DNA from: a virus
Taxonomy: Duplodnaviria > Heunggongvirae > Uroviricota > Caudoviricetes
Virus record (IMG/VR): IMGVR_UViG_2541047708_000006
Reading direction: 5' to 3' (one strand)
DNA: 58,959 nt
Shown here: positions 5,308 through 57,451 of the stretch, piece after piece
How positions within the stretch are numbered: the first letter of the stretch is position 1
Layout: every line of letters begins with the position of its first letter
Notes under the pieces: generated by a model
Seen by the model: the letters and a program-made list of their open reading frames with translations, nothing else
What the model was told of the DNA's origin: nothing
The model's database searches: none
Position numbers and translations under genes: made by a program

Positions 5308-7370
5308 ACGACCTCTTTTAATTGCCTGTCATTTAATTCTTTATGCCATATGCGGAAATTGCGAATATGGCCAAACAGATGTCGTTCTCCAGTATTCGTC
5401 TGCCCTCCAAATCGGATATTTTTATCAGCGGTCACGCCATTATATTCACAATAAACTTCATTAACCGCTTTACCATTTGTCACCACATGAAAGTGACCAT
5501 CAGCTTTTGCAATACATCCAAATGTGGTTTTCTCTGCAAATACATCTGTCGCTGCGCTATTAACATACGAGCCTGAAGGGTTTGACAGACTCATATATAA
5601 CTTACCACTACCTCTGTTGATTGCTGCAATTGCTGATTGCCCGGTATTGGCTGCTGCTATATCCCACACGCGGGGTGCGGCGTTTGGTGCAATATCCCAG
5701 TTTTTATGAATCTCAAGTAAAAAAGTAAATGGTAACTTATAAAGATTATTTCTGGTGGGGATACTAACCAAATCACTGGCTCTTGTCGTTGCGCTGCCTC
5801 CTGAAATAATAAATGATGATACACACGGCCCATTCTCTACTTGTGGGGTGGCAAGATAAATATAGTCACCAGATACTGTTGCCCCACCCTGCTCAGGAGA
5901 ATACTGTATCTGAGAGCCTATTTTTAACTCACCATCAATTGCCTGAATCGTTGCCTCTGCAAAAATCCAGCCTGTGGTCTTATCCTTCCTGACTCGTGCC
6001 GTAATTCTGCCGGCAGCACCACCTGTCATATTAATTTCAAGCGTTTGCGTATCAATGTACGCATCGCCAAGAAAAGTTGTTGCACTACCATCATACTTAT
6101 CAAACCGTATACGTAACCTTACCTGTCGTTCTGTTTTAAAACGGCATGAGGTTGTCACGTACTTGTTATCGCCTGAGACATCAACTGACTTTGTTGCAGC
6201 AATTGATGCCATATTAATAGCCGAAGTTTGCCCAACCAGAGAATCGTTGCAGACAAACTTTCCATAAGTAAAACCAAAACTATCCGTCCCGGTTTCGGGC
6301 ACATCCATGTTTGATGACTTCCCCCAGCTGGCTGGACTTTCCGAATTGAGCATGTAGTTCGTTCTTTGTCCCTCAATAAGCAGGCCATCACACTCAAATC
6401 GCGGCTCATTAATTTCCGCCGTTTTCAGTTCGCCAGATTTGTTGATATATGTTGCCGTTGATGCGCGACTGAAATTAACCTGTTTATCACTGGCGACCTG
6501 AACCACATCGTCACCAATAGCTATTTTTTTATAGCCCGGAGAAAAACCCGCAATCATATCCAGTGAATCGTTAAACGGTATCCACACATCAGGCAGCGGC
6601 GGCACTATATTCGCATAGGGCTCTGCAGTCACTTCCGCTGCGACTTCTGCGCGGTCTGCCGCCTTTTCAGCCCGTGTCGCTGCCGACAGAGCCTCATCCT
6701 TTTTCTGCCCGGCCTTTGTTGCGTCTGCTGCGGCCTCCCGCGCTTTTGTGGTGGCGACTCCGGCATTTTCAGCGGCTGACTCTGCATTACGGCGGGAAGC
6801 CTCTTCACTGTCTGCGGAGGCTTCTTCTGACGCACGGGCATTTGTCTCTGAACGTTCTGCCGCTGTTGCTGCGTTTTGTGCGGCTGTTTTTGAAGAAGCT
6901 GCCGCTTTCGCGCTGTTACCTGCATTCGTCTCTGATGTTTTCGCCGCATTCCTGGACGATGCCGCTGCTGTTTCTGATTTCTTTGCTGCCGCTGCGCTCT
7001 GAGAGGCGGCTTCAGCGTTGCGTGCCACCTCTTCCACCATCTTTTCAAAACGATACAGTGCCTCCGGACGAACATCATCTTCTGTTGCAGCGCCCAGAAA
7101 ATCATTCAATGTCCCCGGCTTAGAATCCTCATACACGGTGATAGCCCCGGCATGTGAAGGCGGAAAACCTTCAACCAGCAGGATAACGCTGTACTGGCCA
7201 TACTCGACATCCATGCTGTAACGTCCGGCTTCATCCGGATTTTCTGAGGCCACCGTGTTCACCACAACCGTGGTGCTGTTACGTTTTGCTTTGAGCTGAA
7301 TGGTGCAGTTCTGTATCGGTTTTCCTGCACCGTCTTTCAGCACGCCTGAAATCTGTACTGCCATATTCAC
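5304..7370 (-). CDS. stf: Side tail fibre protein (lambda Stf-like N-terminus, Ala/Ser-rich shaft, divergent C-terminal domain)
   Basis: N-terminus MAVQISGVLKDGAGKPIQNCTIQLKA... matches recalled lambda Stf; low-complexity Ala-rich middle. Confidence 0.9.
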   Translation of the reverse strand: MNMAVQISGVLKDGAGKPIQNCTIQLKAKRNSTTVVVNTVASENPDEAGRYSMDVEYGQYSVILLVEGFPPSHAGAITVYEDSKPGTLNDFLGAATEDDVRPEALYRFEKMVEEVARNAEAASQSAAAAKKSETAAASSRNAAKTSETNAGNSAKAAASSKTAAQNAATAAERSETNARASEEASADSEEASRRNAESAAENAGVATTKAREAAADATKAGQKKDEALSAATRAEKAADRAEVAAEVTAEPYANIVPPLPDVWIPFNDSLDMIAGFSPGYKKIAIGDDVVQVASDKQVNFSRASTATYINKSGELKTAEINEPRFECDGLLIEGQRTNYMLNSESPASWGKSSNMDVPETGTDSFGFTYGKFVCNDSLVGQTSAINMASIAATKSVDVSGDNKYVTTSCRFKTERQVRLRIRFDKYDGSATTFLGDAYIDTQTLEINMTGGAAGRITARVRKDKTTGWIFAEATIQAIDGELKIGSQIQYSPEQGGATVSGDYIYLATPQVENGPCVSSFIISGGSATTRASDLVSIPTRNNLYKLPFTFLLEIHKNWDIAPNAAPRVWDIAAANTGQSAIAAINRGSGKLYMSLSNPSGSYVNSAATDVFAEKTTFGCIAKADGHFHVVTNGKAVNEVYCEYNGVTADKNIRFGGQTNTGERHLFGHIRNFRIWHKELNDRQLKEVV

Positions 7371-53284: not shown

Positions 53285-53392
53285 AAATCAGCACGTACGA
53301 ATTCAAACTCTGCCATAAAAGAACATATAAGTAATTTATTAACATATAGATATAGGTTATATTACAAATTGAAAAATTATTGGAGAGCAACA

Positions 53393-54259
53393 ATGAATCA
53401 AAATCCATTCTCATTCTATGACTTTCTTGGATATTTAATACCAGGTGGTTTTTTTATCCTATTAATGTATTTCTGTGGTTTGACATTCGATCTAGATATT
53501 GTTATTGACTTAAGTGAATTGCTCAGAGGTCAAAGTCAAATCTTTGGCATTTTGAACTACGCTTCAATAGTTATTATATCTTATATAGCTGGACATTTTA
53601 TTTCTATCACATCAGCATTTTTTATCGAAAAATACATGAATAAAGAATTAGGATATCCTTCCAAATATCTATTTAAAAAATTGATAGATACCTCAGAAAG
53701 CATTTGTAGCCCATCATGCGATGAGAGAAGCGCTGATAAAAAAACAAAAATAAAGAATCGCATAATCAAATGCGTATTATGTCCAATAATACTATGGGAT
53801 TTTATAACACAAAAACTATGTTATTCTCAATCTCTACCATTTCATTTAGCTAATACAACATGGTTAATGATCAAAGAAGGTTATGAGAAAAAGTTCATAA
53901 CAAATCGCCAATTATTACAAGATAAAAACGGACTTGATGATGATCTCTTCAGATTGGCATATCATTATGTTTATGAGTTTTCAAAACAACATCAAACAAA
54001 AATTCAAAACTATGTTGCATTATATGGTTTTTGCAGAAACATATGTTTAATCTTTATAATTTCATTTTGGGTATCAGTTCCAACCTTTATTTATCGATTA
54101 TGTACTCATAGTGATTATCTTTATAGTTTACTTTCAATAATGCTTAGCTTTTTCTTCGTCTATGTTTTCTATGTTGGTTTTGTTAAATTTTATAGAAGAT
54201 ATACTTTAGAAGTATTAATGGCATTTGCTGTACTTCAAAGTAACGACACTATTCGTTAA
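53393..54259 (+). CDS. AT-rich multi-pass membrane protein of unknown function
   Basis: Hydrophobic helices at both ends; GGAGAG RBS 5 nt before ATG 53393; low GC. Confidence 0.65.
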   Translation: MNQNPFSFYDFLGYLIPGGFFILLMYFCGLTFDLDIVIDLSELLRGQSQIFGILNYASIVIISYIAGHFISITSAFFIEKYMNKELGYPSKYLFKKLIDTSESICSPSCDERSADKKTKIKNRIIKCVLCPIILWDFITQKLCYSQSLPFHLANTTWLMIKEGYEKKFITNRQLLQDKNGLDDDLFRLAYHYVYEFSKQHQTKIQNYVALYGFCRNICLIFIISFWVSVPTFIYRLCTHSDYLYSLLSIMLSFFFVYVFYVGFVKFYRRYTLEVLMAFAVLQSNDTIR

Positions 54260-54261
54260 TA

Positions 54262-54507
54262 ATGTTGCTCCCGTGTGCAGACGGGATAATGGAGAAACGT
54301 ATGCTGAACCTCGATTGTGTTCCTATCTCAACTTATTGCAAAGAAACTGGCGAAACTCCTGAAGCAATAAACAAACGTGTACAGCGCGGTGTTTGGCGTG
54401 AAGGTGTTCAGGTTTTAAAGGTTGAAGGCGTTAAGGAGAGGTGGATTGATCTTAGTGAGGTTGCAAAATGGGCCAGACAAAACTGCTCAAACTACCGCGC
54501 GGCGTAA
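54262..54507 (+). CDS. xis: Putative excisionase
   Basis: 81 aa ORF overlapping int start; position upstream of int; weak motif. Confidence 0.45.
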   Translation: MLLPCADGIMEKRMLNLDCVPISTYCKETGETPEAINKRVQRGVWREGVQVLKVEGVKERWIDLSEVAKWARQNCSNYRAA

Positions 54508-55640
54508 CAATCAGGAAACACCACCAGGGAGAAACGATCAATATAACTTTCACCTACAAAGGAGTTAGATGTCGTGAGCCGCTTTCCAATCTGGAAGTAA
54601 CACCAAAGAACATTAAATACGCCGAGCGTACACTCGGCGAAATCCATAATAAGATCGAAAGGGGAACATTCATTTATGCAGAATATTTTCCCCGTTCTGC
54701 TCGTTTGAAAATTTTTGGTAATGCTGCTGCAAGCAAAACGGTAAAGATGTACCTAGACGAATATCTTGAAATCTGCGAAACAAGAAAACTTTCACCCTCT
54801 ACGATTGGTGGCTATAAAAAATGCCGTAGTGCGTTAGCCTCACTTCACATTTGCCCTGCAAGTGAATTAACACCAGCAACCCTGAAAGCGTGGATTCAAA
54901 GCCAGAAAACAACCTTAAAAACCATTCGCAACCAGTTATCTTTCCTACGGTCAGCACTTGATGAAGCCGTGACCGATGGGGTACTTCAAATTAACCCCGT
55001 ATCGTTAGTAACAGCTTCGCGCTACCAAAGTGATAAGTCAGAAGCAGAAAGCAGCTATGTGGTTGATCCGCTATCACCAGCAGAAGTTGATGCATTACTA
55101 GCAGCAGCCGGAAACAAACAATGGGAAAATCTGTTCCGGTTCGCCATACATACAGGCCTGCGTAGTTCTGAATTATGTGCCCTACGATGGCATGATATCG
55201 ACTTTGTTGGAAAAACAGCCCATGTTCAGAGCGCAAGTGTTGTCGGAGTTATCAAAGGAACAAAGACAAAAGCCGGTACCCGTAAAGTTGAACTGACTGA
55301 AGAAGCAATGTTGGCGTTGATAAACCAGAAGCCATTTACATTCATGAAGGATGCTACTGTCTTTGAAGATCCAAAGACCAATAAACCCTGGGCAAGTGCT
55401 GATGCAATCAGGAAAAAAGCATGGGTGCCAACATTGCGAAAAGCAGGTATTCGTTACAGAAATCCATATCAAACTAGGCATACATTCGCCACCCGCCATA
55501 TCAGCCGGGGAGCAAACCTGTTTTGGCTTGCAGCTCAAATGGGGCATAAAGGGCCGGAAATGTTATTTCGTCATTATGGTTCATATTTAAAGGAATATGA
55601 CGGTAATACGACCAGCAATATCACAAAAAAAGCCACTTAA
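54468..55640 (+). CDS. int: Prophage tyrosine integrase
   Basis: 390 aa; C-terminal RHTFATRH...GH...FRHYGSY catalytic motifs. Confidence 0.9.
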   Translation: MGQTKLLKLPRGVTIRKHHQGETINITFTYKGVRCREPLSNLEVTPKNIKYAERTLGEIHNKIERGTFIYAEYFPRSARLKIFGNAAASKTVKMYLDEYLEICETRKLSPSTIGGYKKCRSALASLHICPASELTPATLKAWIQSQKTTLKTIRNQLSFLRSALDEAVTDGVLQINPVSLVTASRYQSDKSEAESSYVVDPLSPAEVDALLAAAGNKQWENLFRFAIHTGLRSSELCALRWHDIDFVGKTAHVQSASVVGVIKGTKTKAGTRKVELTEEAMLALINQKPFTFMKDATVFEDPKTNKPWASADAIRKKAWVPTLRKAGIRYRNPYQTRHTFATRHISRGANLFWLAAQMGHKGPEMLFRHYGSYLKEYDGNTTSNITKKAT

Positions 55641-55650
55641 GTGGCTTTAT
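55624..55650. terminator. Bidirectional terminator between int and downstream operon
   Basis: AAGCCACTT-AAGTGGCTT palindrome flanked by A-run and T-run. Confidence 0.6.
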
Positions 55651-55653
55651 CAA

Positions 55654-56043
55654 TTAGGAGGCTCTCGATTTAAGCATTTCCGTACACTTAGCAAAGAGCC
55701 TCTCAGTTGTTAGAATCGCAACTTCAGACTGTTTAGAAGTGACCGATTGATCAAGTCGATAGTCTGCAACAATCCTCTGAGCTTTAAGTTGACTCAGGAT
55801 AAAACTAATCCCTTTTAGATATCTAGCTTCATATACTTCACTTCCTCTTGAAGCATCACCCTGCAAATAATTGATTAGCCCCTGATGACTGTCTTTCGGC
55901 CCGTTTACCATACAAGGCAAGACATGATGGTAAGCGCCATAGTAGGATCTTGCTATAGCATTTCGATAGCCGATTTCGTCATTACGTTGATGACAGTCTT
56001 TTGCAAAACCGAGAAAATCTTGACTATTAACCGGCATGTGCAA
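55654..56043 (-). CDS. Hypothetical protein, possible HEPN-like fold (second gene of two-gene operon)
   Basis: 129 aa; helical; RSYYGAYHH segment; overlaps upstream gene by 17 nt. Confidence 0.6.
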   Translation of the reverse strand: MHMPVNSQDFLGFAKDCHQRNDEIGYRNAIARSYYGAYHHVLPCMVNGPKDSHQGLINYLQGDASRGSEVYEARYLKGISFILSQLKAQRIVADYRLDQSVTSKQSEVAILTTERLFAKCTEMLKSRAS

Positions 56044-56842
56044 CCCTCCGGGTAATCAGACCTAATTCGGAGATAGCATTCTGCTCAATATGAGTGTCTT
56101 TACATTCAAACCAAACAGTAAAATCTTTACCGACTAAACAATCGTGCTCAGCCATTGAAAAAGCAAGCTCAATATTCATATCAGCGATTTGTTCAGCATC
56201 AGAAGACTTTGTCATGAATACAATCGCATTCACTTTCTCTTCCGAAATATTATAAAAACGCATTCCCGAAAGATGAACCTTCTGAGAATCCATGACATTG
56301 GCTACATTATTGAAAATAAGTTCATATTCTAAACCAGAAAGATCGGCACGTTGCTTAAAGGATTCGACCTGGGAAACAACTTCATCAAAATTGTTGTCCA
56401 TTTTTTCAGGCTCCTTATCTCCGAACAATTTAGAGTATGACTGGAAATACTTCTCCGCCAACGCCATTTTCCCCATAAAGAGGGAGTTTTCATAAGCTTG
56501 AAGATAAATAAACGGGGATACGAAGCTTTCAGCAAGCTTAATGCTTGTTTCAAAGCTTTTCTTCAACGTACCGTAATCTGACAAGAAAACAAGAAAATTC
56601 TTTGCAACAACCTTATTATGGCATACCTGCAAGGAACGCTCAAAGAAGCCTATCGCCTCATTCACTTGACCATGTGCACCATAGACCAACGCTAAAAGAT
56701 AGTCCTCAGAGACAGGATCTCTAATTGCTTCAATCTCACGTAACATCCTTCTAAAGTTAAAGTCATCAATCCTCACTCCATCTTTGAGGTATTTAGTTAG
56801 CCCCGCGCTAATAACTGATGCTTTTTTTGCTGGCTGCAACAT
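56027..56842 (-). CDS. Hypothetical protein (first gene of two-gene operon between int and attR)
   Basis: 271 aa ORF, AT-rich, AT-rich promoter region upstream (56843-57270). Confidence 0.6.
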   Translation of the reverse strand: MLQPAKKASVISAGLTKYLKDGVRIDDFNFRRMLREIEAIRDPVSEDYLLALVYGAHGQVNEAIGFFERSLQVCHNKVVAKNFLVFLSDYGTLKKSFETSIKLAESFVSPFIYLQAYENSLFMGKMALAEKYFQSYSKLFGDKEPEKMDNNFDEVVSQVESFKQRADLSGLEYELIFNNVANVMDSQKVHLSGMRFYNISEEKVNAIVFMTKSSDAEQIADMNIELAFSMAEHDCLVGKDFTVWFECKDTHIEQNAISELGLITRRVAHAG

Positions 56843-57272
56843 TAAAAACCTTATCTTACAAATAGTTGGTAATGATGTTGAATTATTTTTTGTTCTTTAT
56901 GGCTAATAAGATTACATGAAGGGACAACTTCTGGCCACCTTAGAAAACACTCACTTTAGTAACAAGAGTCAATAATATTGTTGACAAATCACAAAAAAAC
57001 AAACTTATCCAAAACAATCTGGTTTATTACAAAGCCTCTGTGCATAAATCTGTGTATAACATCATTTTTACACACATTTTTATAAAAATATTTTTTAGCA
57101 AAAAATGCTATCTATCTCCGAAACTGCAACCACAAACCATTAATTCCAAATGAAACTATTTTAAAATAAATAGTAAGACAGTAACAGGACGGAAAAAGTT
57201 CCGCAAAAGAGCCGCGTGTAAAATCAACAATATTTGGCTATTTAAATTCAATGAATTACATAACTATGGACA

Positions 57273-57451
57273 CGGGTTCAACTCCCGCCAGCTCCACCAA
57301 TCATGATTGGACGGTGTAAGGACTACACCAACAAAAACAGGAAGTTATAAGTCTCAGCAGGACACCGACCAGACGGTGAGGAGACAAAAAAGGATACGCA
57401 ACGGAGTCGCGACTCCCTATGACATTAAAGCCCGCTGATGCGGGCTTTTTT
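57273..57451 (+). repeat. Right copy of direct repeat: partial ssrA 3' end (57273-57299) plus downstream region; prophage attR
   Basis: CGGGTTCAACTCCCGCCAGCTCCACCA then sequence paralleling 1061-1215 with scattered mismatches. Confidence 0.8.
57427..57451 (+). terminator. Rho-independent terminator (duplicate of ssrA terminator)
   Basis: AAGCCCGC-TGA-TGCGGGCTT plus T-run. Confidence 0.6.

Follow-up and report, generated by a model that had tools for sequence, protein, structure and literature searches.

Results and Discussion

General features of the locus

The 58,959-nucleotide stretch of Caudoviricetes DNA recorded in IMG/VR as IMGVR_UViG_2541047708_000006, referred to here in its whole length as the window, includes near its right end two adjacent genes located between the integrase gene (int) and the right attachment site (attR) of a prophage inserted at ssrA. 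The upstream gene (56027-56842, minus strand) codes for a protein of 271 amino acids, hereafter called the partner, and the downstream gene (55654-56037, minus strand) codes for a protein of 127 amino acids that has the fold of the HEPN superfamily. The two genes form an obligate pair that was found at many unrelated genomic locations, and the interpretation that we favor, by a modest balance of the evidence, is that of an autonomous mobile two-gene conflict module of the toxin-antitoxin (TA) or abortive infection kind, with the HEPN protein as the effector, carried as cargo at the int-attR junction of an ssrA prophage.

The original prediction, made from the sequence and its open reading frames (ORFs), described the two genes as coding for 271 and 129 amino acids with an overlap of 17 nt. 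The 271-amino acid ORF was found at the predicted location, whereas the small gene has to be shortened to 127 codons and the overlap to 11 nt (56027-56037), since the start codon was reassigned from the TTG at 56043 to the ATG at 56037. This reassignment is based on the facts that all homologues of the small protein begin with MPV or MSV, that the RefSeq start is identical, and that a GGAGG sequence (56045-56049) lies 7 nt before the ATG but just 1 nt before the TTG. The junction of the two genes thus spans nucleotides 56027 to 56049 on the minus strand, and the location of the GGAGG inside the 3' end of the partner gene together with the 11-nt overlap implies translational coupling. The existence of homologues with identities as low as 28% (HEPN protein) and 13% (partner), as well as confident AlphaFold2 (AF2) models, indicates that both ORFs are real genes rather than chance reading frames.

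Both genes are AT-rich, as had been predicted, with G+C contents of 41.1% (small gene) and 39.2% (large gene) versus 48.3% for the prophage overall, and the DNA upstream of the pair, for which about 430 bp had been claimed, is a 425-bp spacer (56843-57267) with a G+C content of 28.7%. The pair, on the minus strand, and int, on the plus strand, are convergent and separated by 13 nt. A terminator-like hairpin, AAAGCCACTTAAGTGGCTTT, followed by a T-run is located at 55629-55648 on the minus strand, 5 nt past the stop codon of the HEPN gene; it has eight base pairs and its stem overlaps the stop codon of int. The terminator between the pair and int had been described as bidirectional, but the terminator scan accepted this hairpin only for the strand of the cassette, as the T-tail on the plus strand is too weak.

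The small protein has a HEPN fold

The AF2 model of the small protein (pLDDT 93.1) is an all-alpha, up-and-down helical bundle with the topology of the HEPN superfamily. As a single sequence the protein is not easily recognized: hmmscan returned no Pfam family at E<=1, nothing was found in NCBIfam, a search of PDB sequences gave no match, and PADLOC-DB v2.0 (2023) gave weak matches only, to HEPN_IX (0.0014) and, spuriously, to oMTase. In PHROGs the protein belongs to phrog_5176, a family without a function, and in Escherichia coli CFT073 it corresponds to the locus c3205. A family profile built from 23 homologues matched the PDB chains 9xbd_A (3.6e-5) and 9xbc_A (2e-4), which are described as 'HEPN domain-containing protein', and the UPF0332 protein AF0298 (0.011). 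The polyubiquitin chains that ranked at the top of the PDB matches of this profile were rejected as an artefact generated by nine repeated 3.5-bit matches to 'L.D.R.lsDY.i'. In addition, PF05168 is precomputed on one homologue, and JGI and UniProt label members of the cluster as UPF0332/HEPN domain-containing. The small protein thus has a HEPN fold and is probably of the UPF0332/HEPN-T type; the bundle topology and the profile matches to HEPN chains bear out the earlier guess that it was helical and maybe HEPN-like. Its structural neighbors include the HEPN domains of sacsin and Roquin.

The Rx4-6H motif of HEPN proteins is not found at its canonical position, which reads R88-IVAD-Y93 (followed by R-L) with no histidine at +5 to +7. 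The segment R30-x6-H37 literally fits the pattern but it sits in helix 2 and not at the junction of helices 3 and 4. The alignment with 9xbd_A showed the same 'R..DY' and, further upstream, an 'SH' that includes H51. Among 58 unique homologues, with identities down to 28%, the residues E21, R25, R30, Y32, Y33, H37, H51, R88, and Y93 never vary, and the conservation of N26 and D92 reaches 98%. Such a strong conservation of polar residues argues for a genuine active or ligand-binding site. It has been described that in HEPN-T proteins (PF05168) the histidine of the motif is replaced in several cases, and that a conserved histidine located elsewhere could aid activity (Anantharaman 2013, PMC3710099).

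The partner is a TPR-like protein

The exact sequence of the large protein is that of WP_021519466 and its family in PHROGs is phrog_17809, which also lacks a function. The public names of both proteins are automatic only: UniProt calls members of the partner cluster 'Tetratricopeptide repeat protein', and the small protein is listed as 'HEPN domain-containing protein/UPF0332'. No motif could be named in the large protein at the time of the original prediction, and the database scans agree with that description, as nothing was above the Pfam threshold (TPR_1, E=0.0029) and there were no matches in NCBIfam or PADLOC. When 54 members of the partner family were scanned, PADLOC gave scattered single weak matches only and none of them had a Pfam NTP_transf/NTase match; the partner-family profile had no meaningful match among PDB sequences. 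The AF2 model of the partner (pLDDT 84.6, pTM 0.84) was built on an alignment with a depth of nine sequences. According to this model, residues about 4 to 146 are paired helices that form a TPR-like array of tandem helix-turn-helix repeats, residues 152 to 247 form an alpha/beta domain (helices 152-166 and 170-187, strands 191-199 and 204-211, helix 216-231, and strand 241-247), and residues 250 to 271 are a disordered tail, whose coding sequence also provides the ribosome-binding site of the next gene. The model of the partner thus combines a TPR-like array with an alpha/beta domain at the C terminus.

A word-indexed search with the partner retrieved only 10 close clusters. An exhaustive HMMER search identified a family that is uniform in length, with 56 proteins at E<=1e-10, nearly all of them full-length matches of 245 to 290 amino acids, and the proteins ranking below this family were generic multi-repeat TPR proteins. 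Some short proteins that match the C-terminal domain alone (P0088 and others) look like truncated gene calls. Among 69 unique partner sequences there was no invariant polar residue, the most conserved ones being N223 (94%), N82 (91%), K7 (90%), and D215 (88%), and there was no invariant acidic or GS motif nor conserved residues of the GS...DxD type. The conservation is even across both domains, with a peak at residues 221 to 230 that includes the motif 'DMN.ELA'. This even conservation and the lack of an invariant polar residue fit a binding or regulatory protein rather than an enzyme.

The pair is obligate and its components diverge together

The genetic neighborhood of the HEPN gene was analyzed in 7 loci collected through exact-protein look-ups, 12 loci on contigs from one genome per species, 77 loci from IMG/VR, and one GenBank phage, Klebsiella phage ST405-OXA48phi1.3. 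The partner gene was found immediately upstream and on the same strand in all 96 HEPN-seeded loci, with junctions ranging from -20 to +19 nt that are mostly overlaps of 1 to 17 nt. The lone exception in the spacing was a locus (L068) where the partner is intact and the HEPN gene is decayed, and in a Proteus locus (L021) both genes are decayed. An intact HEPN gene without an intact partner was not found in any of about 100 loci. Two clusters of truncated partners that at first sight could represent loss of the antitoxin next to an intact toxin (P0054 and P0060) are uninformative as they result from truncation at a contig end and from a noisy assembly. Very divergent partners, with about 20% identity to the protein of the window, led to six other loci. 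Three of these were read (L108, L112, and L113, which represent two partner types that are both very divergent), and in each of the three the partner is followed by a HEPN gene that has the same motifs. The divergent partner P0085 used as query yielded no viral loci.

The pair is thus obligate, and the co-occurrence analysis that had been proposed as a check came out in favor of the two genes being conserved together (96 of 96 HEPN-seeded loci and the three partner-seeded loci that were read). Homology to metabolic or structural proteins, which would have spoken against the original prediction, was found for neither gene. When 69 distinct pairs were compared with that of the window, the identities of the HEPN protein and of the partner were correlated (r=0.92), and the partner is always the more diverged of the two, by a mean of 17 identity points. 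In the Klebsiella phage ST405-OXA48phi1.3 (L009, GenBank MK416008) the HEPN gene is an intact ORF of 131 amino acids (5752-6147) with a profile match of about 1e-31, but the GenBank record splits this region into two hypothetical coding sequences, 5804-5935 and 5932-6147, which is likely an annotation error.

Distribution and genomic locations

The exact sequence of the HEPN protein of the window is present on at least 1000 contigs, its 90%-identity cluster spans E. coli, Salmonella, and Citrobacter, and the pair as such was found in Enterobacterales, Aeromonas, Gilliamella, and a Thiotrichaceae metagenome-assembled genome. Its locations are diverse, although the prophage borders given by IMG/VR are predictions. 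In Citrobacter, Enterobacter, and Pseudocitrobacter, the pair occupies an int-att slot at other chromosomal sites, next to integrases that phmmer did not detect with the integrase of the window as query. In tail modules (Serratia, the Klebsiella phage, L058, and L062) it either follows the gene for the major tail protein or precedes that for the tape measure. Other locations are directly downstream of the antiterminator gene Q (L070, L075, and L078), after a DnaC-like loader gene (L088), before the large terminase gene, TerL (L071), between the genes for GemA and lysozyme of a Mu-like element, and, in Aeromonas, ahead of an endolysin gene. Plain chromosomal sites are murJ|flgA in Mixta and frr|MFS in Gilliamella. 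The occurrence at many unrelated positions and in many hosts is the behavior of a self-contained moron, TA, or defense cassette.

The large share of loci within phages (77 IMG/VR loci), including late-expressed positions such as those downstream of Q and in tail modules, could be accounted for if the pair were an accessory that benefits the phage itself in counter-defense or in its life cycle. The HEPN-T protein would then bind RNA or nucleotides without catalysis, for instance to sequester or inhibit some component of host immunity, with the TPR protein as an adaptor; the missing canonical histidine and the similarity to the HEPN domains of sacsin and Roquin, which are not known nucleases, would agree with such a role. 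We consider this explanation quite unlikely. The stand-alone chromosomal insertions in Mixta and Gilliamella are hard to explain in this way, the invariant cluster of R, H, D, Y, and E residues resembles a catalytic or tight ligand-binding site, and the possession of its own leader (see below) and an orientation against the transcription of int and xis are what is expected for genes expressed in the lysogen.

The int-attR interval is a site of variable cargo

Among 5426 complete E. coli genomes, 394 have the integrase of the window but only 42 have the cassette. Blastn comparison with the loci of sister prophages (L022 to L028) showed that the identity ends at about 55603-55609, within the last ~12 codons of int, and returns at 57193-57268, either at the att repeat or slightly ahead of it, which defines the segment 55604-57267, 1.66 kb including the AT-rich leader, as exchangeable cargo. 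In JJ1886 and NWU_1 the slot houses a gene for an AAA ATPase and a DNA adenine methylase gene that match PD-Lambda-5 (PADLOC B component, 5.8e-124), and in ECONIH4 it houses DarT1 and a NADAR antitoxin. In UTI89 (L022, 5871-7741) and APEC E18006 (L023) a minus-strand cassette of three genes is present, coding for proteins of 199 amino acids, 108 amino acids (STAS-like), and 303 amino acids, for which there was no PADLOC match. The slot of L026 includes a ParA-family gene and two hypothetical genes and that of L028 a single gene coding for a hypothetical protein of 265 amino acids. The slot is therefore occupied by at least two recognized defense systems in sister prophages, and the view of the int-att interval as a moron or defense slot holds well, the cassette being one of its several alternative contents. 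The int-attR junction of this family of ssrA prophages can be marked as a hotspot, and the STAS-like cassette of UTI89 and the ParA cassette merit screening.

The evidence of this section and the preceding one also bears on whether the pair could be a regulator acquired by lysogenic conversion, in which an RNA-binding HEPN protein, as has been proposed for those of the MtlR and Roquin types, and a TPR cofactor would tune the gene expression or physiology of the host. The spread of the pair over Enterobacterales, Aeromonas, Gilliamella, and the Thiotrichaceae genome argues for a self-contained function that is independent of the host, and the fast divergence of the partner and the residence in a hotspot are signatures of conflict, which make this explanation very unlikely.

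Two further observations concern the borders of the slot. The last ~12 codons of int (55604-55640) vary with the cargo, whose first gene even overlaps the stop codon of int in the case of UTI89. Because the junction of the exchange lies inside int, the C-terminal tail of the integrase is effectively encoded by the border of the cassette. On the other side, a second, different integrase gene is located right after attR in L026 (8335-9564), L027 (8947-10188), L028 (6923-8152), and L106 (1097-2338), while the window has glaH at this position; the presence of the second integrase gene indicates that another element has integrated in tandem at ssrA.

The leader of the cassette

The 425-bp spacer (56843-57267, minus strand) could have been the attP arm of the phage backbone, but this was ruled out since sister prophages with the same integrase and other cargo do not share it. 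For the same reason the AT-rich leader is considered as belonging to the cassette. It includes an 18-bp palindrome of the GTCAA...TTGAC type, GTCAATAATATTGTTGAC (56968-56985, minus strand), which occurs only once in the window. The 180 nt upstream of nine cassettes, those of the window (56843-57022) and of L002, L005, L010, L012, L036, L046, L054, and L069, whose partners are about 33 to 59% identical to that of the window, were compared. The blocks kept upstream of these divergent cassettes are the GTCAA...TTGAC palindromes, a TGG block, and an invariant TGTA..CTT block; in others than that of the window the palindrome reads GTCAA-N3-TTGAC(A) and lies at about -135. The TGG and TGTA..CTT blocks may represent a weak -35 and a TAnnCT -10 hexamer, which would generate a leader of ~60 nt; in the window the putative promoter elements, both on the minus strand, are the -10-like TAATCT (56909-56914) and the weak -35-like GTGGCC/TGGCCA (about 56931-56937). 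A generic sigma-70 scan gave 5 matches where 5.2 were expected by chance, which is the background level, and no Rfam family was matched in the leader.

The palindrome, as a possible autoregulatory operator, adds to an architecture, with the partner first and overlapping genes, that is similar to that of TA systems. Together with the lack of orphan intact HEPN genes in about 100 loci and the location of the pair next to int and xis, from which it would disappear along with the prophage, this would be compatible with a pure addiction TA system that stabilizes the prophage or island by post-segregational killing, with no anti-phage role. Stabilization is less sensible for pairs at internal phage positions such as the tail module, the Q-lysis region, or before TerL, and a simple antitoxin would rarely have the size and the sensor-like character of this TPR protein of 271 amino acids. 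Furthermore, the occupants of the same slot in sister prophages, DarTG and PD-Lambda-5, are defense systems, although TA and defense roles can coexist. We regard pure addiction as unlikely.

Two features of the leaders of other cassettes were also observed. In one subgroup, to which the window does not belong, there is a conserved hairpin-like AAGATTGC-N10-AGCAAC about 30 to 50 nt before the start codon, and the Citrobacter and Enterobacter versions have a TGGATAA-N5-TTATCCA palindrome, similar to a DnaA box, at about -222.

Comparison with known systems

The gene organization is reminiscent of the MNT-HEPN (MntA/HepT, type VII TA) systems, in which the regulator gene comes first and overlaps the toxin gene (Anantharaman 2013, PMC3710099); the genes of the window overlap by 11 nt in the same order. 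On the other hand, the partner is not a nucleotidyltransferase but a TPR-like array with an alpha/beta domain, and the HEPN protein lacks the histidine of Rx4H, so that neutralization by AMPylation is not expected. The closest relatives of the small protein are of the UPF0332/HEPN-T (PF05168) type and include AF0298 (2hsb), TT1696 (1ufb), ST0689 (1wol), and the proteins in PDB entries 9xbd and 9xbc, for none of which we found an established biochemical function. The small protein differs from them in that by itself it falls short of Pfam PF05168 and in that its genomic partner is another one.

HepS, from Gifsy-1, and Tha, from Staphylococcus aureus, are HEPN effectors of prophages that are also located at accessory-gene positions and confer protection on the lysogen. 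Binding of a phage tail-tip protein activates the otherwise inactive HepS, which then cleaves tRNA anticodon loops (PMC13043305), and Tha is switched on by tail proteins (PMC11087260). They can be taken as a functional analogy for a 'sensor plus HEPN' system, but they are single-gene systems with a canonical RX4-6H motif, whereas the system of the window has two genes and no canonical motif. Helical-repeat proteins coupled to HEPN proteins, as is the case in the window, have been predicted in the context of conflict systems for AbiU2 with a Sel1-repeat gene, for LA2681, where the HEPN domain is fused to or found beside TPRs, and for C6orf70 (Table 1 in PMC3710099). The HEPN families of these associations retain Rx4-6H and are covered by separate Pfam models, and neither protein of the window matched these models in the Pfam scan. 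DarTG and PD-Lambda-5 share with the pair the identical int-attR slot in sister prophages, and DarTG is also a two-gene TA defense system, but there is no sequence or domain similarity and the relation is only one of position.

Neither component significantly matched a known defense model in PADLOC-DB v2.0 (2023). Literature searches with the RefSeq accessions, UPF0332, TPR-HEPN, and 9xbd/9xbc gave no match, and those with c3205/c3206 gave nothing useful. The accessions of the window were not found in the main text and supplements of DefensePredictor (several of the supplement files in part only), and no such pair is described in the Rousset 2022 paper on hotspots. To a specialist, one more HEPN candidate at a prophage hotspot would be no great surprise; even so, this module stands out by its unusually clear borders, its strict pairing, and its wide distribution.

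Possible mechanism

Within the conflict module that we favor, the HEPN protein is taken as the effector since no other component has a polar site that is strictly conserved; its toxicity, its RNA target, the assignment of regulator and regulated protein, and the trigger are what we infer. By analogy with the HEPN superfamily, the HEPN-T-fold protein would most likely act as a dimer on RNA. It could cleave RNA by means of a non-canonical site composed of R88, D92, and Y93 with H51, H37, R25, and R30; alternatively, tight binding to RNA could block translation. The non-enzymatic partner, which occupies the genomic place of the MNT antitoxin, would bind the HEPN protein and keep it inactive. Binding of a phage protein or peptide to the TPR-like groove of the partner would then release or activate the effector, and this would arrest the growth of the infected cell. 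Two versions of this model can be envisaged. In a TA-like version the partner would neutralize a constitutively toxic HEPN protein, which would be freed by infection or by loss of the partner. In a sensor-activator version the HEPN protein would be inert by default, as is HepS (PMC13043305), and the partner bound to a phage protein would switch it on. The finding of no intact HEPN gene without its partner and the one locus where decay affects the HEPN gene but not the partner lean weakly toward the TA-like version.

A bolder and more specific proposal, which we put forward tentatively and rate somewhat below even, is that the TPR protein is a pattern-recognition receptor for a phage protein that directly activates a HEPN-T nuclease with a shifted histidine, the two constituting a new family of anti-phage defense. 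If it were true, this would be the first function for the widespread UPF0332/HEPN-T clade outside of the pairing with MNT, and the pair, with its two proteins, would be a minimal form of a 'sensor plus HEPN' system that differs in design from STAND/Avs, HepS/Tha, and HepT/MntA.

Several points weigh against the conflict module with a HEPN effector. Besides the missing histidine of Rx4-6H (R88IVADY93), some HEPN domains may be non-catalytic (PMC3710099). The location in a hotspot is guilt by association, as morons unrelated to defense occupy such slots too. To our knowledge, RNase activity has not been established for the HEPN-T/UPF0332 subclass. The AF2 model of the partner was built on nine sequences only, the 96 loci include many near-duplicates, with 58 HEPN sequences that are unique, and no paper or defense-database entry describing the pair was found. 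If validated, the pair would be a compact two-gene defense or TA family common in enterobacterial prophages; it would also offer a first entry point into the biochemistry of HEPN-T/UPF0332, with a new partner family, without a Pfam model, in the place of the MNT antitoxin.

The prophage and neighboring genes

The region of interest is 99.9% identical to E. coli CFT073. The tmRNA gene is located at 698-1060, and two copies of a direct repeat of 148 nt that consists of the 3' end of ssrA and the sequence following it, 94% identical to each other, constitute attL (1029-1176) and attR (57268-57415, plus strand); there is a partial tmRNA match at 57252-57299. These repeats bound a prophage of about 56 kb. 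The gene glaH/csiD (G+C content, 54.9%) lies past attR. Immediately past the att repeat there is a strong terminator-like hairpin (57427-57448, plus strand; nine pairs, six of them GC, and a T-run), which is presumably the native terminator of ssrA moved by the integration of the prophage. At the right end of the prophage, the excisionase gene (54262-54507, plus strand; phrog_2917, 8.3e-45) is followed by int (54468-55640, plus strand), which codes for a tyrosine integrase (Pfam Arm-DNA-bind_2, 7.7e-24; Phage_integrase, 1.2e-16). Three more families of direct repeats, which have no relation to the pair, were found within the prophage, 39152-39351/42604-42803 (74%), 19522-19656/23416-23550 (72%), and 22295-22373/37097-37175 (85%).

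Directly upstream of xis there is another AT-rich gene (53369-54259, plus strand; G+C content, 28.3%), which codes for 296 amino acids (288 in RefSeq, WP_001075212). Its product matches phrog_12528 (8.9e-174), a family with no assigned function, and has weak PADLOC matches to Csx27, an accessory membrane protein of type VI-B CRISPR systems (1.4e-05), and to tm_4. This gene is kept in the CFT073 and UTI89 prophages, and relatives in JJ1886 and ECONIH4 have two small genes instead; because of this exchange, the position may be another slot for variable cargo.

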